From Trichodesmium erythraeum IMS101 (GTDB lineage: Bacteria; Cyanobacteriota; Cyanobacteriia; Cyanobacteriales; Microcoleaceae): a stretch of DNA of 32,000 nucleotides. The stretch lies in the NCBI RefSeq assembly GCF_000014265.1, contig NC_008312.1, positions 6,420,001 to 6,452,000 on the forward strand. Reading direction: 5' to 3'. Position 1 is the first letter of the stretch. Every line of letters starts with the position of its first letter. Of the stretch, positions 4,903 to 24,889 are shown in pieces. The position numbers and the translations under genes were made by a program. The notes beneath the pieces are model-generated. The model ran no database searches and was not told the DNA's origin. It was given only the letters and a program-made list of their open reading frames with translations.

Positions 4903-5400
4903 TTAGAAAAAGTCCCCACCTATACTTATTCTTAGCTAATCGTTTATATAAATGAGTCGGGTATGAATAGCCAAAACAGTAAGATAATGGATAGATCAAA
5001 AAGGAGAACAATTCTACTCACTTTATACAGGGAAACCTCAAGAGCGTATCAACATGATTGCTGCCCTGTGAATAGGTAAGCCTAAAAGCTACATGGGTGA
5101 AAATCTAGCTAAATTCTAGTCAGGGCCTTAGCTGCGATCGCTACCTTCATTCAACAAAGTCCCAGGAACATCTACTTTCCTTCTTTATCCTTACTTCTTC
5201 CTTCTTCCCTTTCCCTTCTTTCTATAATCAAGACTCTTGACTAGTAACTAAGCTCTGGAGACCTTTTATCATAAAAAAAGCGTTGCTGAATTAAGGTATG
5301 ATTTTAGTCCATAGCGATCGCTATGAATATCTATAAGTAACTGAAACATCCCAAAATTGATATTTACTGAACCAGTAAGAGAATTGAATGCTTTAACCTC

Positions 5401-5560
5401 TCGGAATTATTTTGAGTAGCAAAAAGTCCTTCGATGTCATCTGGCAAGATAATGCCGAAGTCTAGTATTTTCTTCTTCTACTCTGGTCATATAGGTTTTG
5501 CCGATAATTTTATCCCCATAATTAATAGGCCTTGGCATATACTTTCCATCCATCTGTAAC
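5401..5560 (-). pseudogene. IS1-family transposase C-terminal fragment
   Basis: Minus-strand translation gives ...DGKYMPRPINYGDKIIGKTYMTRVEEENTRLRHYLAR*HRRTFCYSKI. This matches the conserved IS1 InsB C-terminus (..GK..T..vEg.NtrlRhylaRl.RkTlCySKs) and has an in-frame stop. Confidence 0.6.
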
Positions 5561-5640
5561 TTAAAAATAACATTCCCCTTTTTTCACTTGTTCCCATAAA
5601 GGATAAAATGTTTTTCCACTAGGATTTCCAATAACCCATT

Positions 5641-5904
5641 CTAAAATTCCTTATGATTAACTCCAAATTTTTTAGCTCTGTCTGCCAATTTAAACTATGG
5701 ATTTAGTTTGACATCTTTTTCTAATTCTTTCAAATCTAATTTTCTGCGACGACATTCTACCTTAGTTGCTTCCAATTTTGAGCGAGATAACCATCTACAT
5801 ATCGAAGCTATTCCTATCCCAAATACATGAGCTACTTCGGTGAGTTTACTACCATTTTCTACAAAATTTATGACTTTTTGTATGAAGTCTAAACTGTAAA
5901 GCAT
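5641..5904 (-). pseudogene. IS630-family transposase N-terminal (HTH) fragment
   Basis: The 69-aa ORF MLYSLDFIQKVINFVENGSKLTEVAHVFGIGIASICRWLSRSKLEATKVECRRRKLD matches IS630-type N-terminal HTH regions. After the stop it continues as FKLADRAKKFGVNHKEF. The DDE domain is absent. Confidence 0.65.
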
Positions 5905-6175
5905 AGTGAAAAATAATTTATAGTTGACTTAAAATTATTCTTCTCAATTTTTCTCTTAATCTTAATTAAAACAACTATAAATGATTTTATTGTTACAGAG
6001 CTAGATTTTGCTTCTCCCGGTTTAACTACGCTAATGGGTGATTTTGTGACTCCACAACCAGGTATTACTGAACTTACTCCATCTCCTGTCATCTTAGAAC
6101 TACTCCCGGAAGTAGTGGGAAATGTTGCCCCTTCTGTAATTGAGTGATTCGAGTATATTTGTGAATGTAGAATTA

Positions 6176-6559
6176 TGAGCACATTTTCATGTTGCATTTC
6201 CCTAGGGCACAAAAGTCTCACCCACCCATTTCAAAAGATTTTTTGGAAGAAATAACAGCAAAATTTAAGCCCTTTTCCATAATAGGTAAAGAGTCATGGT
6301 TTCCTGCTATCTAGTAATTAGGAATATTGAGGGGACTAATTAAGGAAACCAGACATTGGTATGCTCCGAGGCTTTCATCCTTGACAACGCCCCTGGTCAA
6401 TAGCAGTGCATCTAGTTGAGGTTGTAATTGTCCCAGTTTCTCTAAAAGCTTCAGGAAAGAGGTTTGGCCAGACACTCCATAAGTTTTTCCCAAAGTTAGG
6501 TCTGTAAATAGATGGGTGTCAGTCATTTGAGTAACAGTGATAGGAGATTTAGAAATCAT
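6176..6559 (-). pseudogene. metallophosphoesterase (CpdA-like) pseudogene, 3'-truncated with nonsense mutations
   Basis: The N-terminus has the TDTHL metal motif. The expected LLTGDL motif reads LLTRGV. IPNY*IAGNHD has TAG (6311..6313) where the conserved Trp of the WxxGNHD motif is expected. GG*DF has TGA (6218..6220) at a second expected Trp. Similarity is lost beyond ~6176. Confidence 0.7.
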
Positions 6560-6883: not shown

Positions 6884-7318
6884 TTAAGTTTAGTTGTAAC
6901 CTATCAATATTAATTAATCTATTGAGCAAAAAATCAATAAATAAGGTTATAGGTTTTTAGGTTTTTCTCTTTTTAGAGGTTGAAAAAAATCAGCTTTAAT
7001 ATTTCTAGAAAAATAATAATTGATAGCCCTCTTTTGTAAGTAATAAGTTATTAAAGATAGCTGATAGCTGAGGGCTGAAAGCCGAGGACTTATGACTCGC
7101 TTCTAATACTAAGCGTGAAAAAAAGAATGTTACAAATAATCTGGGTACAAAAAGAAAATTTAAAAAGAAAATTTAATCAGATTTCCCTTGAATTAAAAAG
7201 AAATTTTTCAACTAATATAATGAGATTTAAACTATTTATTCTGACTCCTTAGTACTTTATCCTAAATCTTAAATAGTAGACTAAATATTTGTAGCAAAAG
7301 TTTATTTTTCTGTTATAA

Positions 7319-7924
7319 CTACTTTTCTAATGATGGTAGGTAACTAACTTTAGCCCATGCAGCAATAATATTACCTAACCATTGAATATTGTCATAAGAC
7401 TGATAAGCAAGGAGTTGATAATCTTGATGGGTAGTTTTGATTAATAAACCCCATGATGATAATCTATTTCTTTTAAAACCGCTAGTTTTAATTTGTTGTA
7501 TATATTTAATTTTTGAGCGTCTAATTTCGTGTTTTTTTTCTTTAAAATTACCTAATTTTTCATTGAAAACCAGGTAGTCAAGTCTTAAGTCAAATCTAGC
7601 TTTTGCTAGAAAAAAATATATGATTATATAGACTTGATCAACAATTTTAGCAACAAAAAAATACATCACTAAAGGAATAAATAAAAATATAAAAGTTAAA
7701 ATAATAATTAAATAATCTTGAATCAGGAGAAATGAAGTTATTAGCAATATAGCAATAAAAATACAGAATAGTAGCCAAGCTAAAAGGCGTATCATTGAGA
7801 ATATTATTAAATATCTCATGCCATTTGGACGGTAAACTAATAGAAGCTCACTGTGAGAAGAGTAGAAGATTTTAAATCCTTTCGGAGGTGGAATAATCGG
7901 TAACATAATAGGAGCAAAGATCAT
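7319..7924 (-). CDS. hypothetical integral membrane protein
   Basis: 201-aa ORF with a long hydrophobic block (LIIFSMIRLLAWLLFCIFIAILLITSFLLIQDYLIIILTFIFLFIPLVMYFFV) giving 2-3 predicted TM helices. No family recognised. Very AT-rich. Confidence 0.45.
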   Translation of the reverse strand: MIFAPIMLPIIPPPKGFKIFYSSHSELLLVYRPNGMRYLIIFSMIRLLAWLLFCIFIAILLITSFLLIQDYLIIILTFIFLFIPLVMYFFVAKIVDQVYIIIYFFLAKARFDLRLDYLVFNEKLGNFKEKKHEIRRSKIKYIQQIKTSGFKRNRLSSWGLLIKTTHQDYQLLAYQSYDNIQWLGNIIAAWAKVSYLPSLEK

Positions 7925-8235
7925 TAAAGATTTTCAATATTTGTTGCTAGGAAAAAAAATTAATTATACTAAAGATAAATTTTTTTTCATAAAGAAATTC
8001 TCAACTTAATTTTTTCTATAAGTTTTTGATAATTGGCATTAATTAGGTTCAGATCAATAAAGTAGACATTTGGTGAGCAAGGTACCTACACTATAAATAT
8101 TTAATCAGAAAAGTTGGTATTTGTACCCATTGTCTATTGTCAGAGAGCATCCTATTTATATCAATTACTAACTAATAATAGCATTAGCATAATTATTAAC
8201 TTGTTTCCAACTAAAATTTAATTTATTTTTTTCTT

Positions 8236-9699
8236 TTAACTGCAAAACTTTAACTGAGTAAAAAGCAAAACAATTTCATCAATAGCATTTCTTAAATATT
8301 TAGTTTCTAAATCAGATTGATTAACAATAACACTAAAAACTAAAGGTTCAAAATTAATAGGTTGCACATATCCTGCCAAACCAGAAACCCCACTAATTGT
8401 TCCTGTTTTTGCTTGTATATTTCCGGTAGCAAAACTATTTATAAAACGCCGACTTAATGTACCACTGACACCAGCAATAGGTAAAGAATTTCTATAAGCA
8501 TTAGCCCAGGGAGAATTAGCCATAATTCTGAGAGTTTGTACCAAAGCCTCCGGACTAACTAAATTATGACGAGACAAACCAGAACCATCATTTAATCTAA
8601 AACTATTGGGAGTAACTCCTAACCTAGTCAAAATTACTTTTACCTCCTCCAAACTTTTTGCCAAAGTCTGATAGTCAGATTTTTTATTAGGAACTAATTT
8701 ACTCCTAACCCCTAGTTGACGTAATAAAGCTTCTGCATAAACATTATTACTTTTTTTATTTACTTCCTCTATTAGTTCTCCCACCGTAGGAGACTCGACA
8801 AAAGCTAATTCAGTCAAGTTTAAATTAGAAGTTATTTGTGAACTTTTAACTATTCGAGAAACACTAATTCCTTCTAACTCTAAAACCCGACGAAAATTAT
8901 TTAAAAAATTATCGGCTGGTTCCACAACTGCCACATAAACAGGTTCCGATGCCGAGCCAATTCGGAGTTGCCCAGATATACGAATTATTGGTTGAATAAA
9001 ATCTCGCCCTACTTCAACAAACTCTTTTTTATTTGTCGCTACAGTCACCGAATTATTTTCAATTTGCCATTTTTTACTTTCCGCCGGATTAACAAAAGTA
9101 ACTTTTAAAGGTTGACCATTACCTTGAGGCGATAAAACTAAATCTATAGCATTTTGATTAAATATTAAACTATTAATTGGTGCCCCATAACCAGCTTGGA
9201 CATCTTCCCATTCCCAATTAGAATTAACTGCCATTCCTTGAAAATAAGTATCATCAGAAATTAGTTGATTAATATTTTCTATACCCCCCTCTTTTAGTTG
9301 TTCAGCCAAACTTTTTAATTGAGTTTCTGCTAAACTAGGATCTCCTCGTCCCACAATATATATATTACCTTTCCCATCACCATAAATAGAAGTTCTAATT
9401 CTAAAATTAGGTTTTAGTTCTTTTAATACTGCTGCAGTTGTTAATAGTTTAGCTGTAGAGGCAGGGGTAAAATAATATTCAGCATCTCGGCTATAAATTT
9501 TCCTTTTTCCAGATAAAGTTTCCACTAAAATTCCCCACCGAGAGCGATTAAATATTGGGCGATTTATTATAGAATTAATAGCATTATTTAATTCTATCGG
9601 ACAAATTTTTCTAGTCGTTTCTTGGCTAAGTGCTATTAATGAATTTATAAATATGATCAAGAAAGTAATTGTAATTTGTTTAAGGAAAATTTTTAACAT
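8236..9699 (-). CDS. dacB: D-alanyl-D-alanine carboxypeptidase/endopeptidase (PBP4, peptidase S13)
   Basis: 487-aa ORF with a signal peptide, SxxK active site (ASTAKLL), DGSGLS and the KTG box (AKTGTISGV). Length and layout fit the PBP4/DacB family. Confidence 0.88.
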   Translation of the reverse strand: MLKIFLKQITITFLIIFINSLIALSQETTRKICPIELNNAINSIINRPIFNRSRWGILVETLSGKRKIYSRDAEYYFTPASTAKLLTTAAVLKELKPNFRIRTSIYGDGKGNIYIVGRGDPSLAETQLKSLAEQLKEGGIENINQLISDDTYFQGMAVNSNWEWEDVQAGYGAPINSLIFNQNAIDLVLSPQGNGQPLKVTFVNPAESKKWQIENNSVTVATNKKEFVEVGRDFIQPIIRISGQLRIGSASEPVYVAVVEPADNFLNNFRRVLELEGISVSRIVKSSQITSNLNLTELAFVESPTVGELIEEVNKKSNNVYAEALLRQLGVRSKLVPNKKSDYQTLAKSLEEVKVILTRLGVTPNSFRLNDGSGLSRHNLVSPEALVQTLRIMANSPWANAYRNSLPIAGVSGTLSRRFINSFATGNIQAKTGTISGVSGLAGYVQPINFEPLVFSVIVNQSDLETKYLRNAIDEIVLLFTQLKFCS

Positions 9700-10969
9700 T
9701 TGCTATCTACTAAAAATAGAGTATAATACTAAGCTTTCTGAGTTTTTACTGCATTTTTTAATTTATAATTAGGGAAGTAAGGGGGAAGTAAAAATAAAAA
9801 TAAAAATAAAAATAATTAATACTAATTAGCTCATAATTATTAAAATATTGTTCGGCATAATTTAATTATTTAATAATTGAGTTTTTACCTAAGTAAATAA
9901 TTCTTTTTTTTTGCCATTTTTATAACATTTATTTCACTGGTTTTCAGACAAAATAGAGTTTTTAGACTCAGCTATTTGTATAATCTATAAATTAAGAGAA
10001 TTTATCAAACTGGTTGATAACAATAATTCTAATATATTAAGAATATTCTGGTTAAATGTAGATTTTTACTTATATTGATTTCCAGTAGAAAAAAAGCTGA
10101 TTTTCTCGTTAGGCATTTACTTATCAGAAAATTATAGCTGATTTTTTGGTTATACTTATTCTCAAATTAAACATTTTTAAACTCATAGAAAATGATGATT
10201 CAATTGCAGTTGTTAATAGTTTAGCTGTAGAGGCAGGGGTGAAATAATATTCAGCATCTCGGCTATAAATTTTCCTTTTTCCAGATAAAGTTTCCACTAA
10301 AATTCCCCACCGAGAGCGATTAAATATTGGGCGATTTATTATAGAATTAATAGCATTATTTAATTCTATCGGACAAATTTTTCTAGTCGTTTCTTGGCTA
10401 AGTGCTATTAATGAATTTATAAATATGATCAAGAAAGTAATTGTAATTTGTTTAAGGAAAATTTTTAACATTTGCTATCTACTAAAAATAGAGTATAGTA
10501 CTAAGCTTTCTGAGCTTTTACTGCATTTTTTAATTTATAATTAGAGAAGTAAGGGGGAAGTAAAAATAAAAATAAAAATAATTAATACTAATTAGCTCAT
10601 AATTATTAAAATATTGTTCGGCATAATTTAATTATTTAATGATTGAGTTTTTACCTAAGTAAATAATTCTTTTTTTTGCCCTTTTTATAACATTTATTTC
10701 ACTGGTTTTCAGACAAAATAGAGTTTTTAGACTCAGCTATTTGTATAATCTATAAATTAAGAGAATTTATAAAACTGGTTGATAACAATAATTCTAATAT
10801 ATTAAGAATATTCTGGTTAAATGTAGATTTTTACTTATATTGATTTCCAGTAGAAAAAAAGCTGATTTTCTCGTTAGGCATTTACTTATCAGAAAATTAT
10901 AGCTGATTTTTTGGTTATACTTATTCTCAAATTAAACATTTTTAAACTCATAGAAAATGATGATTCAAT
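9433..10969. repeat. Tandem segmental duplication of two units (~772 bp and ~765 bp)
   Basis: Unit A (9433..10204) and unit B (10205..10969) align end to end. Differences are about 6 substitutions, one fewer AAAATA unit, and one fewer T in a poly-T run. Each unit holds dacB codons 1 to ~89 plus ~500 bp of upstream sequence. Confidence 0.95.
10124..10471 (-). pseudogene. truncated duplicate of the dacB 5' end (115-aa chimeric ORF)
   Basis: The first ~88 residues are identical to DacB, including the signal peptide and STAK. After the duplication junction the frame reads 27 unrelated residues (IESSFSMSLKMF...). Confidence 0.85.
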
Positions 10970-19591: not shown

Positions 19592-20261
19592 TTTTTTCTT
19601 CTCCTGATTAATTTAAGCATCATATCCCTATTATATAAAACATCTCCCAAAATACCTATTTAGGTACAGCGGTGTAAGGGGTAAGGGAACCTTTTCTGGA
19701 TCGGTTGAAGCGAGTGCGTCGGCGCAGCCACCGGAAGAAGTCAAATCTGTGTGTGTGTAAGTCTTACTACAAGCTTTCTGAGATTTCCCAAGTTACAGAA
19801 ACTGAGGTAGTTGGTGGATAATCTTAATAAGTTCTAATTAAGGAATTTTGAGTATCAAGCCTGCCCCTAGTCTTGTAGTTTGCTCTTGAAGAGTAGGCTG
19901 AAAATTATTAGAATATTTTAAAAGCCAGGTTCATAAATTTAGTTCAAACTAAAAACTACTTGTTTTTGGTAAAATCTGGAAAATACTTTTTCTTAATAAT
20001 TAAGACATTGAAATGAAAAATATAGCTATAGCTAATTAACATTTTTATTAATAGAGTTGTTTGGTGTGGGCAAATTTAAAATGCTCAAAAGCTTACTATA
20101 TAAAGTTTTTATGATCTTGGATATAAAAGTGCTATAAACTTTAACTGATAAGGGTTTTAGCTATTTGTTTTCCAAAATTACCAATAACTCTAATTATGGT
20201 ATCAAAGCTTAATAATTAATAAAAATGTTAACTATTTAGTTGTAAATTAGGAACTGTAATT

Positions 20262-20534
20262 ATGCAAGTCTCACAAAATTGCCTAGATTTAATCAAAAAA
20301 TGGGAAGGATTTTCTCTGAATGCTTATATAGATCCAGTAGGAATAGCAACTATTGGGTATGGAAGCATTCGTTATCCCAATGGAGAAAAAGTTCGTCTAG
20401 GAGATAGAATTTCAGAAAGAGATGCAGAAGGATATCTGGGTTTTGAATGTAAGAAAATAGCACTAGAAATTTCTAAATTAATCAAAGTTCCTGTTAATCA
20501 AAACCAATTTGATGCTCTAGTATCTTTTTCTTAT
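20262..20534 (+). CDS. exon 1 of split cell-wall hydrolase gene (N-lobe of GH24 T4-type lysozyme domain)
   Basis: KKWEGFSLNAYIDPVGIATIGYG carries the Glu/Asp/Thr catalytic positions of T4-type lysozymes. Homology ends at ...NQFDALVSFSY. The last 5 codons plus stop of the ORF-track call (VRLVG*) are intron sequence. Confidence 0.85.
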
Positions 20535-21132
20535 GTGCGACTCGTTGGCTAGTAAAAACTGCTTAAAAGCAGCTATAGCAAGCCTTCCAGGTTTTTAAAT
20601 GAAGTGAGTAACTTCAACCTGTGAAAACTCTTATGTCCTTAGTGGTGAAATTCCACCGCCTTGTTGTTGGGTAGAAAGCATAGGCCACGGAGTAGAGACT
20701 GAACATCAATCTCCGAAGCTGGCTTAAATGCGGGAAGATAATAGTTGCCAACGAAAATACCGCTAGCAGAGACTGACAAGTGGACGAATAGGAAGGTAAT
20801 AAAACTCTCGTAAAAGATGGCCATTCCGAAGGTAGCTATGGAATGTAGGACGAAAGTTAGAGGGTTAATGGGTATAGATATATAAGAGTCTATATCAACA
20901 ACCAATACGCACCCTCCGGGAGATTTTACCCCACTAAATCAGTTGTAATAAAGGCATAAGGGAACGAGAAAACCTCCCCAAGACACCTAAGAATATGGGT
21001 CGAGAACTTAGGAAGCCATTCAAGGTTAATCTACGCACTTAGTCGTAGGTCTTAGGGAGAGTAGGATTGGGTAAAAAGCATATCTATGCAGACGTACCCA
21101 CTGTTAGACGTAATGTGAGGTAACAACTAGCA

Positions 21133-21830
21133 ATGAATAAAGCTAAAACACTAAAAAGACATAATGGTAATCCTAATCTCTTTTTAAGTGTGGCATGGGA
21201 TACAGACGATACACTGTCCCAAATTAGTATTAATCCTAATTTCAGCTGGAGAGATATTGATGGGAAACGGGCCCAGAAGAATGTATCTAAGTTGCAAAAG
21301 TTAATTTACATAGCATCCAGCCGTGGCAAAATCCCCAAGATGCGTAAATAGCAAAAACTTCTGACCAAAAGTTATTACTCCTTGTCCCTAGCTTTTAGGC
21401 CCGTGATACAGGTAGACCCGGGGAAGAAAACTGCTGGTATGAACTGAATTAAAAAGCTTCCTCCAATGCAGAGATTTAACTTGGTTGATTCGATTAGCAG
21501 AATTAGTAAATATTCTGGTGTAAGGAAAGAAGTTACGATGCTGTTAAATTGGCAAAAGAATAAATGCGCATCTTATGGATTAACTTTTAGACCAACTGAC
21601 CTAATTGAATTGGACTATTTAATGCTTATTAATGTTTAGGTCTAAAGGTGGTGACAATATATAGAGGAATAAACAGTTGTTGCACCGACATTGTCACGAT
21701 ACTAAAACTGCTTTAGACAAGAAAACATATTTAAAAACAAGGCTACAGGAATTACTTGATGATTATCTGTGGGTTGACAATATGTTGGCGCTAAGGTGGG
21801 GATGTACCTTTTAATTGGGGCGTTTAAGAG
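21133..21830 (+). pseudogene. degraded group II intron reverse transcriptase/maturase (IEP) remnant
   Basis: The 72-aa ORF (..WRDIDGKRAQKNVSKLQKLIYIASSRGKIPKMRK) corresponds to the IEP N-terminus. It continues with stops as QKLL..GKKTAGMN*IKKLPPMQRFNL (RT0). It then jumps to an HNH remnant, SKGGDNI*RNKQLLHRHCHDTKTALD (~21641..21720). No YADD or RT1-7 or X domain is seen. Confidence 0.8.
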
Positions 21831-21832
21831 AG

Positions 21833-21921
21833 GAGCCGTGTGAGGTGAAAGTCTCACGCACGGTTTTGAAGACCAGCAGACACTATAAAGAGTGATCGGA
21901 AATGGGTTTGCTGAGTTTAAC
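21833..21921 (+). ncRNA. group II intron domains V and VI (catalytic core and branch site)
   Basis: Domain V, GAGCCGTGTGAGGTGAAAGTCTCACGCACGGTTT, is a 34-nt hairpin with a GAAA tetraloop matching the DV consensus GAGCCGUAUG..GAAA..CAUACGGUUC. Domain VI pairs GACCAGCA with TGCTG[A]GTT, leaving unpaired A 21914 seven nt before the 3' end. Confidence 0.85.
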
Positions 21922-23136
21922 AATGTAGGAACTGGCGCATTTCAAAGTAGTACCTTATTAAAAAAACTAAATCAAGGAGATTATCAAGGAGCAGCTAATG
22001 AATTTTCTCGTTGGGTAAATGGGGTGGTTAATGGTGTCAAGCAATCACTACCTGGTTTAGTATCTCGTCGTGCTGATGAAAAGAGGTTATTTCTTAAAGC
22101 TGGAGGAGAGAAAAAACCTTTAGAAGATGAAATTTCCAAACAAGATAAAGTAACTTGGTTAGAAGGATATCGTGATGAAAATAAGAAAACTGTAGTTGTA
22201 GCTTGGAATGGGGGTAAAGTAGAAGAAATTTTAACTCTAGAAAAGTTTAATAAAGAGTTATTGGCTAATGTTTTTCCTCAGTATAAAAATGCTAGGTATT
22301 ATGTCACTGCTCCTGGTAATAAACGAATTCCTCCTGGTGAAAGAATTTCAGTTTTTGAAATTTCGGATATATATAATTCTGATAAACTTCCAAAACTCAA
22401 TCGTGTACTAGTGCGAGGGAGTGAAGGTAGTGATGTGAAAATTTTACAAGAGAGATTGAAGGATTTAGGTTATTATCTAGGAGAACTTGATGCTATTTTT
22501 GGTAGGCAAACTGAGCTTGCAGTTATTGATTTTAAAAAAGATTATTTTGGAATCACAACAGATAATGCAACAGTAGAGTCCATAACTTGGAAAAAATTAT
22601 GGGGAGATCCTCTACCTAAACCTCCCGTCTTACCACCCACGTCAAAGAAAAATTATCTACTATTAACAAAGACAAGTCGTAAAGATAGATATGGATGTTA
22701 TGTACTTCACTTAGACTATTTTAAAAGTGGCAAGCTAGAGGACAGGTTAGAAGTTTGTTGCGGTGCCCCTGGAAGGCAATTTTTCCGTACCGCTGCTCGG
22801 AGTCGGGCAATGACTGGAGAACCATTACCAGAGGGAAAGTGGTACATTAATGATATTATTTGGGCTGATGGTCAAGATAATTATTATGGTCAAATTTTTC
22901 AAAGTGGTATTGGCCCTGTAACAGTTCCCTTAGACTATATAGAACCTGGCACAACTGAAAGAAGCGCGATTGAAATTCATATTGACTGGAATCGAAATTA
23001 TGGTTCTCCTGGTACTGTTGGTTGTATAGCTACTTACAACATAGCTGATTATAAAAGGTTTATTACTTGGTTAAGGGATACAGATCCACGGGATCTTTAT
23101 GTTGACTGGAAATTAGGGACTTCTCCTAAACCTTAG
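21922..23136 (+). CDS. exon 2 of split cell-wall hydrolase gene (lysozyme C-lobe, linker, PG_binding_1-like domain, YkuD/Tlde1-like C-terminal domain)
   Basis: Resumes NVGTGAFQSSTLLKKLNQGDYQGAANEFSRWV...GLVSRRADEKRLF (GH24 C-lobe). GSDVKILQERLKDLGYYLGELDAIFGRQTELAVIDFKK is a peptidoglycan-binding repeat. The C-terminus GEPLPEGKWYI...IEIHIDWNRNYGSPGTVGCIA shows a His...GC pattern. The ORF-track start at 21892 lies inside the intron. Confidence 0.82.
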   Translation, partial: NVGTGAFQSSTLLKKLNQGDYQGAANEFSRWVNGVVNGVKQSLPGLVSRRADEKRLFLKAGGEKKPLEDEISKQDKVTWLEGYRDENKKTVVVAWNGGKVEEILTLEKFNKELLANVFPQYKNARYYVTAPGNKRIPPGERISVFEISDIYNSDKLPKLNRVLVRGSEGSDVKILQERLKDLGYYLGELDAIFGRQTELAVIDFKKDYFGITTDNATVESITWKKLWGDPLPKPPVLPPTSKKNYLLLTKTSRKDRYGCYVLHLDYFKSGKLEDRLEVCCGAPGRQFFRTAARSRAMTGEPLPEGKWYINDIIWADGQDNYYGQIFQSGIGPVTVPLDYIEPGTTERSAIEIHIDWNRNYGSPGTVGCIATYNIADYKRFITWLRDTDPRDLYVDWKLGTSPKP

Positions 23137-23146
23137 TTAAGATTAT

Positions 23147-23173
23147 GGTGCGTTACGCTTGGCGCTTCGCACC
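23147..23173. terminator. GC-rich hairpin between convergent genes (possible bidirectional terminator)
   Basis: GGTGCG-TTA-CGC-TTG-GCG-CTT-CGCACC forms a stem with a symmetric internal loop, followed by TCGCTTTTG. It lies between the hydrolase stop (23136) and the SPFH stop (23191). Confidence 0.45.
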
Positions 23174-23190
23174 TCGCTTTTGAGTTGATA

Positions 23191-24000
23191 TTAATCAACT
23201 TTTTTTAGTTCTATTTCACCATCATCAGGATATTCTCCAATTAATTCACCCACTCCTTCTGACATAGTCCTCGGGTGCATAAATACTACTTTAGAATTAG
23301 CACTTTCACTTAATTTATGATTAATTTCTATGTATCTTTGAGCAATCAGAAATTTTATAAATTCCGGACTGTCTGGAGACAAGTTTAAAGTTTCAGAAAG
23401 AAGCTTGATAGACTCTGCCTCTGCTTGAGCTTTAGAAAGAACAGTTTGCTTCTGACTTAAAGCTACTCTTTCCGACTCCATCGCTATTCGCAATTTTTCA
23501 GGAAAAACAATATTCTGAATCTCAACACGAATCACTTTTACCCCCCAGTTATAAGTTGCTTCATCTAATTTTTTCAGCAAGGCTTTATCAATATCATCTT
23601 TTGTAGACAAAACTTGTCGCAATGGCAAGCGACCAATTTGAGAACGCAGAGAAGTTAAAACAATTTCTTGAATAGCATTTTCTACATTTTCAATTGCATA
23701 ATACGCTCTCTCTATGTCTATGATCTGCCAGTACAGTACTGCATCTACTTTCAAAGTCAAGTTATCATTAGTAATAACTGACTGCTCAGGAATATCCAAA
23801 ACTCGTTCACGAATTGTATCAACATAAGTTATTCTCTCTACTAGGGGTACAACAAACTGAAGTCCTGGCTTTAAAGTACGTCTATATTTACCTAAGCGTT
23901 CTACTAACGCTTCATCCCCTTGGCTAATAACTTTTACTGAGGAGTTAACTGTATAACTAACAATTGCGGTTGCTATCACAGGAATAATATATTGGAGCAT
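23191..24000 (-). CDS. SPFH/band 7 (stomatin/prohibitin-like) membrane protein
   Basis: 269-aa ORF with an N-terminal TM segment. SPFH core motifs include VPLVERI..VD.RE....P.Q.VIT.DN..L.VDAVLYWQI.D...A.Y.I.N and WGVKVIRVEIQNI. Confidence 0.85.
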   Translation of the reverse strand: MLQYIIPVIATAIVSYTVNSSVKVISQGDEALVERLGKYRRTLKPGLQFVVPLVERITYVDTIRERVLDIPEQSVITNDNLTLKVDAVLYWQIIDIERAYYAIENVENAIQEIVLTSLRSQIGRLPLRQVLSTKDDIDKALLKKLDEATYNWGVKVIRVEIQNIVFPEKLRIAMESERVALSQKQTVLSKAQAEAESIKLLSETLNLSPDSPEFIKFLIAQRYIEINHKLSESANSKVVFMHPRTMSEGVGELIGEYPDDGEIELKKVD

Positions 24001-24889
24001 AATTTAGGGTTGAGAATAATGGTTAATTTTCTTAATCCTAGCATTTTCTTGAGACTAGGAAGTAGAATTTTAGAGACAAAAATTTTTCCCTATTTGTAAA
24101 GGAATTGTTAAAAACGTTGCTTTTAGCTCACATCTCTTTGAATAACTACCCCGGGAAAATTTTAGGTACTGGGGAAAAAGGTAACAATTGATGGGAGAAA
24201 AGCATTTTTATTATTACTAATTAATGGGCAGTAATTAGGCAAAAACAATATATGTAGCGTAGTAATTTGTGGCTATACTAGAGAAATTAGATATAATTTG
24301 CTGCTTTCGGTAGTTCAATATGACTCCCATTCCAGTGACAATATTTCTATGATTTTTTCCAATCTAAATTATGATAAAGTGTAATGATTAACTACACAAA
24401 ATATTTCAATTATTAGAGAATCAAATTATTCTTTAGTATTTGGAAACAATGAATTTGAATTATATTGGTTCTTGTCAGTATTTACTCTCATTTTACACAA
24501 ATTTTACTATGACAAATTTGGCTAATTATCTGGAAAAAGTGAGTTCTGATACAATTAATTATTTGAAGTTTTGAAACTTTGAAATCGCAAAATTTATGGT
24601 TAAATGCCCAAGAATAAATTGTTAATAAAACAGGAAGAAGTATATCTAATTTTTGATGATACAGTTATAGTGATCGCTCCCCGTGGTTTTAGCCGTATCC
24701 CATAAAGCAGATAATGAAGATAGTCTAATTGGTCATACCCTGTATATATTATCTTTGCATAAGTCCTGATGTATACACTACTTTGATATCCATCTTAATT
24801 AGTGTAATTTAAAGCATTGATAAATAGATTTTCAAGGGTTATATAGTAAATTTATATGGGGTTCTATTAATCCATCCTACCTTTAATTT

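Follow-up and report, generated by a model that had tools for sequence, protein, structure and literature searches.

A group II intron interrupts a lysozyme gene of the cyanobacterium Trichodesmium erythraeum IMS101. The gene lies in a 32,000-nucleotide (nt) stretch of the chromosome (contig NC_008312.1, positions 6,420,001 to 6,452,000 of the forward strand), which is called the window here and supplies the numbering used throughout. A deletion in domain IV (DIV) of the intron has removed most of its intron-encoded protein (IEP), and the ribozyme around the deletion is intact in every part that could be compared. The intron is precisely removed from the transcript in vivo, and as a result an mRNA for a 495-amino-acid (aa) enzyme is made. 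Full-length IEPs of sibling introns are encoded in the same genome. Taken together, it is likely that this is an open reading frame (ORF)-degenerate group IIB intron, fixed in a lysozyme/peptidoglycan (PG)-binding gene, whose splicing is assisted in trans by the IEP of a sibling.

Splicing in vivo

The evidence for splicing comes from contigs that carry the two exons joined. Clustered at 90% identity, the annotated 414-aa ORF of the host gene groups with a 495-aa protein (P0097) that is identical to the predicted spliced product. This protein is encoded on three contigs, L085, L086 and L087, whose source assemblies are SRR32466007, SRR3181806 and SRR32466000. All three are 100% identical to window 20074-20534 joined to 21922-24113, and exactly 20535..21921 is absent from them. 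They also share a start at 20074, while DNA assemblies read through this position. The contigs fit transcript assemblies, and 20074 is probably the start of the transcript. A simple promoter scan upstream of 20074 returned no canonical -10/-35 elements and no convincing site.

The intron with the same deletion is found in many ocean metagenome contigs. In the nine contigs that were compared, domains V and VI (DV, DVI) and exon 1 show zero changes (9/9), and exon 2 shows a few substitutions and in-frame indels. Elsewhere the intron is near-identical in most of the nine, the exceptions being clustered differences in L001, L003, L089 and L090.

The gene itself is almost certainly Tery_4178, because it encodes a PG-binding domain, is interrupted by one intron and has no maturase, and because window proteins (n=3) are identical to proteins of the T. 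erythraeum IMS101 chromosome; the assignment uses this description and the exact protein matches, not coordinates. Pfreundt et al. (2014) list Tery_4178 in their Table 2 as "maturase: no, 21 split reads" and newly annotated the 5' exon of an intron-interrupted lysozyme gene (PMC4143802). The main text of that paper presents the introns without ORF-remnant anatomy, deletion breakpoints or pairs of exon- and intron-binding sites (EBS and IBS). The intron, the missing maturase and the in vivo splicing of Tery_4178 are already in the literature, as is the trans-maturase mechanism for sibling introns of T. erythraeum. The present analysis adds the breakpoints, the stops, EBS1, EBS2 and EBS3, covariation evidence for an intact ribozyme, and independent contigs with ligated exons.

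The lysozyme gene and its annotation

One gene, at window 20262..23136 (+), is split by the intron. Exon 1 ends in ...ALVSFSY and is followed by GTGCGAC; exon 2 begins at 21922 (NVGTGAF...), directly after ...GAGTTTAAC. The conceptually spliced protein has 495 aa in a frame that is uninterrupted over both exons. The Pfam family Phage_lysozyme matches it over its whole length (1-125/125, E 3.8e-43), and this match spans the exon junction; PG_binding_1 is also matched. The C-terminal ~170 aa (residues ~325-495; window 22900-23136) match no Pfam family at E<=1 and no PDB entry with significance at the sequence level. This part holds the motif HIDWNRNYGSPGTVGCIAT, which we take to be reminiscent of an L,D-transpeptidase-type His...Gly-Cys active site, as a candidate resemblance.

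Current annotation reflects an intron that was not recognised. The annotated 414-aa ORF, 21892..23136 (+), opens at a GTG inside DVI. Gene callers of public assemblies annotate an 88-aa antisense ORF within the ribozyme (20639-20905, -) and call the 72-aa IEP remnant (21133-21351, +) a gene. The 414-aa start and both of these "genes" are artefacts of the unrecognised intron. The practical question is settled: the mRNA for the 495-aa lysozyme exists, and therefore the annotated 414-aa protein is a mis-annotation.

The deletion and the ORF remnant in domain IV

The remnant of the IEP was compared with a composite intact IEP of 619 aa by tblastn. Residues 1 to ~120 of the query match the intron with 63% identity and two in-frame stops, residues 509-550 match in the same frame, and residues 553-619 match in the next frame with one internal stop. 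Residues ~121-508, which include the YADD motif, have no counterpart in any frame of the intron. In L094, a contig with a full-length sibling intron (see below), the gap corresponds to ~5357-6517, and the RVT_1 and GIIM domains fall within it. On the stitched remnant, Pfam finds RVT_N almost complete (1-82/83, E 1e-17) and the C-terminal half only of HNH (E 0.002), and it finds no match to RVT_1 or GIIM.

These results bear on the original prediction, which was made from the letters of the window alone. It had placed the remnant at 21133..21830 and quoted two peptide strings from it, and both the coordinates and the strings are correct: GKKTAGMN*IKKLPPMQRFNL lies in frame 1 and GGDNI*RNKQLLHRHCHDTKTALD in frame 2. 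An intact N-terminal piece of 72 codons, followed by a stop and a stretch like the reverse transcriptase (RT) motif RT0, was likewise recognised correctly; the ORF is 21133..21351, it matches RVT_N, and its stop is at 21349. The RT palm and fingers with YADD and the X domain are missing as had been stated. The claim of a direct jump from RT0 to a frameshifted HNH remnant is right as to the frameshifted HNH and wrong as to the jump: an in-frame piece of the DNA-binding and endonuclease (D/En) region, SRISKYSGVRKEVTMLLNWQKNKCASYGLTFRPTDLIELDYL (~21497..21621, frame 1), intervenes.

The frameshift is an insertion of ~10 nt at ~21622-21637. There are four stops in the remnant ORF, at 21349, 21445 and 21662 and a terminal one before DV. 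Relative to intact siblings, the HNH remnant carries the substitutions CASCG to CASYG and DH to DY. With an insertion and frameshift, a stop and changes at conserved positions, the HNH remnant is dead. The RVT_N part is 75% identical to intact siblings at the nt level vs 82% among the intact siblings, and codon positions 1+2 account for 52% of its differences vs 41%. For the ribozyme part, the window intron is 81% identical to the siblings vs 83% among the siblings themselves. By these substitution patterns, constraint on the IEP remnant is gone. Because the IEP is destroyed (RVT_1 and GIIM gone, HNH partial, four stops and a frameshift), the window intron is not an autonomous mobile retroelement.

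The ribozyme

The termini of the intron are GUGCG at 20535 and AC at 21920-21921, which fit the 5' GUGYG and 3' AY of group II introns, and the boundaries are set by the contigs with ligated exons. Rfam matches DV and DVI at 21830..21921 with RF00029 (Intron_gpII, 56.1 bits, gathering threshold 40) and RF04357 (group II D5, 58.6 bits, gathering threshold 53). At E<=1 these DV/DVI matches are the only Rfam hits on the intron, and no family for domains I to IV (DI-DIV) is hit. Conserved at the 3' end are DV, DVI, the bulged A (A21914, -8) and the terminal TTTAAC. The DV variant of the window recurs, with compensatory changes, in the siblings L060A and L077, and its long DVI variant is common to the intact-IEP siblings L071, L021 and L053.

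The remaining domains were assessed by covariation. The first 598 nt of the intron are colinear with 22 sibling introns that have full-length IEPs, drawn from metagenome-assembled genomes (MAGs) of Okeania, Dapis and Trichodesmium, and with one other deletion derivative. An RNAalifold consensus of the 24 sequences contains 144 pairs, and compensatory double changes occur in 47 of these. In this consensus 98.5% of cells are paired vs 35-48% when the partners are slid by 1-3 columns, and the slid controls have double changes in 8-17 pairs vs the 47 observed; none of 500 shuffles reached the observed covariation values. The consensus came from the same alignment on which it was tested, which favours the structure somewhat. 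The window intron forms 142 of the 144 pairs, its two failures being one gap and one C·A. Siblings with intact IEPs fail in 0-10 pairs, and the window intron falls inside this range. As far as pairing and conservation can tell, there is no sign of damage in the ribozyme.

A hairpin of DIV lies just upstream of the ORF start (21062..21106). It is ~92% identical to the copy in the intact-IEP intron L094, including one G-C to A-U compensatory pair. Its support comes from covariation only, the single-sequence fold being not significant (z -0.76). By analogy it is a candidate IEP-binding (DIVa-like) element.

Exon-binding sites

The tertiary contacts checked in the window intron were those between EBS and IBS. 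In a fixed register and with 36 distinct siblings, EBS1 scores 5.33/6 on its own exon vs 2.70 on the exons of other introns, and EBS2 scores 4.75/5 vs 1.99. In 18/19 siblings the base in the EBS3 alignment column and the base that opens the 3' exon are complementary. The assignment to group IIB draws together the termini, DV and DVI, the covariation in DI-DIV, the EBS/IBS pairing and the precise excision with exon ligation. The positions of all elements are collected in Table 1.

Two metagenome scaffolds, L001 and L003, have both exons identical to the window and substitutions clustered exactly at EBS2 and EBS1 (window 20812-20910), which would break the match to the exons. L001 has further clustered differences at window 21718-21824. 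Probably these scaffolds combine the window locus with paralogous sibling introns, through chimeric assembly or recombination.

Table 1. Positions of the interrupted lysozyme gene, its intron and the elements of the intron in the window
Feature	Position	Strand	Remarks
5' untranslated region	20074..20261	+	20074 is the common 5' end of L085, L086 and L087
Exon 1, lysozyme gene, 91 codons	20262..20534	+	holds IBS2 and IBS1; contig junction between 20534 and 21922
Group IIB (chloroplast-like) intron, 1387 nt, GUGCG...AC	20535..21921	+	interval missing from L085-L087; Rfam; colinear with siblings
EBS2 AAAGAU	20813..20818	+	pairs with IBS2 (AUCUUU, 20522-20527; exon -13..-8), 6/6
EBS1 AUAAGAG	20882..20888	+	pairs with IBS1 (UUCUUAU, 20528-20534; exon -7..-1), 6/6, 7 with a G-U pair
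EBS3 U	20924	+	pairs with the first base of exon 2, A21922
DIV hairpin just upstream of ORF start	21062..21106	+	helices 24-25 of the consensus fold, 5 pairs with compensatory changes
IEP remnant, N-terminal part (RVT_N / RT0)	21133..21490	+	in-frame stops 21349-21351, 21445-21447
Deletion junction	21486..21497	+	~1.16 kb gone: RT1-7 (with YADD), X/thumb, most of D
IEP remnant, C-terminal D/En (HNH) part	21497..21829	+	frame 1 to ~21621, frame 2 from 21638, stop 21662-21664
Domain V	21833..21866	+	AGC triad 21834-21836, GAAA tetraloop; Rfam, fold z -5.1
Domain VI	21870..21918	+	bulged branch-point candidate A21914, 8 nt from the 3' splice site; fold and Rfam alignment
Exon 2, 404 codons and stop	21922..23136	+	remaining GH24 domain, PG_binding_1, C-terminal domain of unknown family

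Sibling introns and their IEPs

Three intact IEPs are present in the IMS101 genome, Tery_0239 (635 aa), Tery_0240 (634 aa) and ABG52411.1 (635 aa), each with RVT_N, RVT_1, GIIM and HNH. In Tery_0239 these domains lie at 39-121, 136-360, 383-461 and 532-577 (Pfam). The intact proteins of the family that were returned by homology searches are 600-640 aa long and have the same four domains. The solved structure nearest to an intact sibling IEP is the T.el4h maturase/RT (6ME0_C, E 2.9e-115).

Sibling loci were profiled by a scan of genome contigs with the composite IEP. This yielded 78 loci in MAGs of Okeania, Dapis and Trichodesmium, and IMS101 was not among the best 80. Sibling DNA was represented by L094 in place of the IMS101 copies: this contig, from a T. 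erythraeum MAG, carries a 2.5-kb full-length sibling intron whose 635-aa IEP is a cluster-mate. The assembly that contains L094 also contains L004, a contig with 100% identity to the window gene. On L094, at 7273-8225 (-), there is another IEP gene (GIIM and HNH, cut by the contig end), which is convergent with the sibling IEP gene and lies ~360 nt downstream of it. The two convergent genes are possibly the counterpart of the adjacently numbered Tery_0239 and Tery_0240.

A derivative that has proliferated, as the TeI3 introns have, was considered and rejected. Exact copies of the 72-aa ORF of the window occur in the lysozyme gene only (23 contigs), so that this ORF belongs to a single locus, and other derivatives have different breakpoints. 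The 18-nt deletion junction gave six hits in the metagenomes of the Joint Genome Institute (JGI), none of them related to the window by blastn, which makes them chance matches.

Other deletion derivatives exist among the siblings. In Trichodesmium sp. MAG_R03, one host gene holds at least three sibling introns in a row (L060, 3404-~8700; orthologous in L105). The middle one (L060B, 6056-~7378; P0001-3) is a derivative with other deletion breakpoints, in which a 191-aa ORF of RVT_N and an HNH remnant is open; it occupies one other orthologous site. A functional mini-ORF of 190/191 aa was rejected: the ratio of nonsynonymous to synonymous substitution rates (dN/dS) is 1.2-1.5 over three distinct orthologous sequences (four loci, two identical), as for neutral evolution. 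By these rates, the open frame is a chance survival and not a function. No deletion shared by the window copy and L060B is claimed, as the two have only two substitutions in common and no extra overall similarity. A smaller sibling intron of ~1.0 kb in Trichodesmium sp. MAG_R02 (L077, 3091-~4115) has its DV 936 nt after the 5' end and essentially no ORF.

How the intron may be spliced

The window intron has the features of an ORF-degenerate intron: remnants of the ORF flank a deletion in DIV, the ribozyme is retained, and related introns with intact IEPs are present in the same genome. An old deletion of ~1.16 kb in DIVb took away the RT fingers and palm, the X/maturase domain and most of D, and the leftover RVT_N and HNH fragment then decayed neutrally. 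This left an intron with no maturase of its own and no self-driven mobility. Its ribozyme, under continued constraint, has remained complete, with DI-DIII, the DIV basal hairpin, DV, DVI, and EBS1, EBS2 and EBS3 matched to its own exons. The IEP of a sibling (of the Tery_0239/0240 type, or that of the nrdJ/RIR intron) would assist folding and splicing in trans. It would bind the conserved DIV hairpin and the ribozyme core, by analogy with the ORF-less dnaN introns.

Assistance in trans is the best explanation because full-length sibling IEPs co-reside with the intron and because such help is published for related introns of T. erythraeum. In this organism 10 of 17 spliced introns are without an ORF, and trans dependence was demonstrated by heterologous expression in E. 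coli (PMC4649490). According to the summary given in PMC12584367, the four ORF-less dnaN introns all depend on the RT of the full-length RIR intron, which works as a general maturase (Meng, Wang & Liu 2005, J Biol Chem 280:35085). More generally, a bacterial genome with ORF-less introns almost always also holds related introns that encode an IEP (PMC4424553). That the window intron receives such help in the cell would follow from analogy with these cases.

Several points weigh against this explanation. The remnant protein is only 63-65% identical to the intact IEPs of IMS101, and the ribozyme is only ~81-85% identical in nt to full-length siblings; because these identities are modest, cross-recognition is plausible and not guaranteed. 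In the work of Meng et al., the protein tested was the IEP of the nrdJ intron, which may or may not be closely related to the window intron. The locus tag Tery_4178 was assigned through a description, without coordinates. Finally, if the libraries behind L085-L087 were of DNA, an allele without the intron would yield the same contigs. Such an allele is unlikely, because the three contigs stop at the same 5' base and DNA assemblies run through it.

The original prediction had held that a trans-acting maturase is needed or the host gene is dead. Its description of a gutted IEP next to a retained ribozyme core stands; the gene is not dead, the exons being ligated. Its view that the 5' end, the EBS candidates, DV and DVI are without obvious damage agrees with the 142 pairs formed, the match of all three EBS to the exons and the intact DV and DVI. 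It had suggested a search for full-length siblings with intact IEPs, a comparison of DIV binding sites, and a look for junction-spanning evidence. The search led to Tery_0239, Tery_0240 and ABG52411.1, the comparison to the conserved hairpin of L094, and the junction is covered by L085-L087 and by the 21 published split reads (PMC4143802). Three outcomes had been foreseen, namely an intron dependent on help in trans, a self-splicing relic, and a fossil that has inactivated the hydrolase. The last is refuted by the ligated-exon contigs and the split reads, the first is the best supported, and the second keeps a minor chance.

A fossil intron in an inactivated lysozyme gene would account for the destroyed IEP and for an annotation that calls only a truncated 414-aa ORF starting inside DVI. 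It is hardly credible in view of the precisely ligated exons in three assemblies and the published split reads (PMC4143802), of the uninterrupted frame of 495 codons with a full-length GH24 match across the junction, and of exons that vary among populations by no substitution in exon 1 and by few substitutions and in-frame indels in exon 2. A second alternative is unaided self-splicing in vivo. The intron would then resemble C.te.I1 of Clostridium tetani, as a ribozyme that only splices, and would have no need of the sibling IEPs. In favour of this, the ribozyme is whole and under constraint. The ORF, whose protein identity has fallen to 63-75%, has been dead for a long time, but the intron remains fixed, with DV and DVI identical across ocean populations; moreover, one protein-independent ORF-less bacterial intron is known (PMC4424553). 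That same source, however, calls the C.te.I1 case the sole known exception, and related intact IEPs do co-reside with the window intron. The ORF-less siblings in T. erythraeum, as far as they are described in PMC4649490 and summarised in PMC12584367, needed an IEP when tested in E. coli. Compensatory changes also show that the DIV hairpin ahead of the dead ORF has been kept, though its role in translation is gone. On balance, we regard unaided splicing as unlikely. The helper may also be a host factor other than a group II IEP, such as an RNA chaperone, a helicase or another recruited protein. Nothing specific points to such a factor; organellar ORF-less introns use them (PMC4424553). Sibling IEPs are available in the genome, and their help has a precedent in T. 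erythraeum. No such splicing factor is known in cyanobacteria, and this too counts against a host factor, to which we give only a slim chance.

If the IEP of a sibling does assist in trans, the lysozyme/PG-binding enzyme might be made only when another intron's IEP is expressed, so that a cell-wall hydrolase would be gated post-transcriptionally by retroelement activity. We consider this quite unlikely. If true, production of the enzyme would be under a regulatory coupling of the kind proposed for the coordination of dnaN and RIR, with possible consequences for autolysis or the remodelling of filaments in Trichodesmium.

Comparison with known introns

The closest parallel is the Tery_4178 intron as described in PMC4143802, almost certainly the same element: a lysozyme gene that encodes a PG-binding domain and is interrupted once, by an intron without a maturase that is spliced in vivo, and whose 5' exon was absent from the original annotation. 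The ORF-less introns of dnaN (and nrdJ/RIR) in T. erythraeum are alike in that they belong to the same organism, have protein-coding hosts and lack a functional IEP, with related ORF-carrying introns in the same genome and documented splicing in vivo. In contrast, the trans-complementation experiments were done on those introns and the host of the window intron is a lysozyme gene.

The TeI3 introns of Thermosynechococcus elongatus offer another example, in which an ORF-deleted lineage is spliced and mobilised by the IEPs of sibling 'driver' introns (Mohr, Ghanem & Lambowitz 2010, PMC2882425). These are also cyanobacterial IIB introns, and a DIVb deletion of ~1.2-1.5 kb has left N- and C-terminal remnants of the ORF (PMC2882425). 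They differ in that 17 copies share one common breakpoint whereas the window derivative is found at a single locus, and in that the copies are mostly intergenic whereas the window intron lies inside a coding gene. C.te.I1 (PMC4424553) is likewise a bacterial group II intron without an IEP; however, the C. tetani genome is without an IEP-related gene, whereas T. erythraeum has at least three intact sibling IEPs.

The window intron is one more documented case, with breakpoints and exon-binding sites, of a bacterial intron shifted from retroelement to splicing-only element. Such a shift, in a genome where sibling introns provide the maturases, is a recognised model of how mobile group II introns could have moved towards a splicing apparatus held in common, and the present case adds no new principle to it.

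Other features of the window

A tandem duplication of ~770 bp, with copies 96-99% identical, lies at window 9433-10969. It copies the upstream region and the first 89 codons of a Peptidase_S13 gene (PBP4-like D-Ala-D-Ala carboxypeptidase) at 8236..9699(-). A 115-aa ORF at 10124..10471(-) is the duplicated N-terminal fragment of this Peptidase_S13 and is 100% identical to it over 89 aa.

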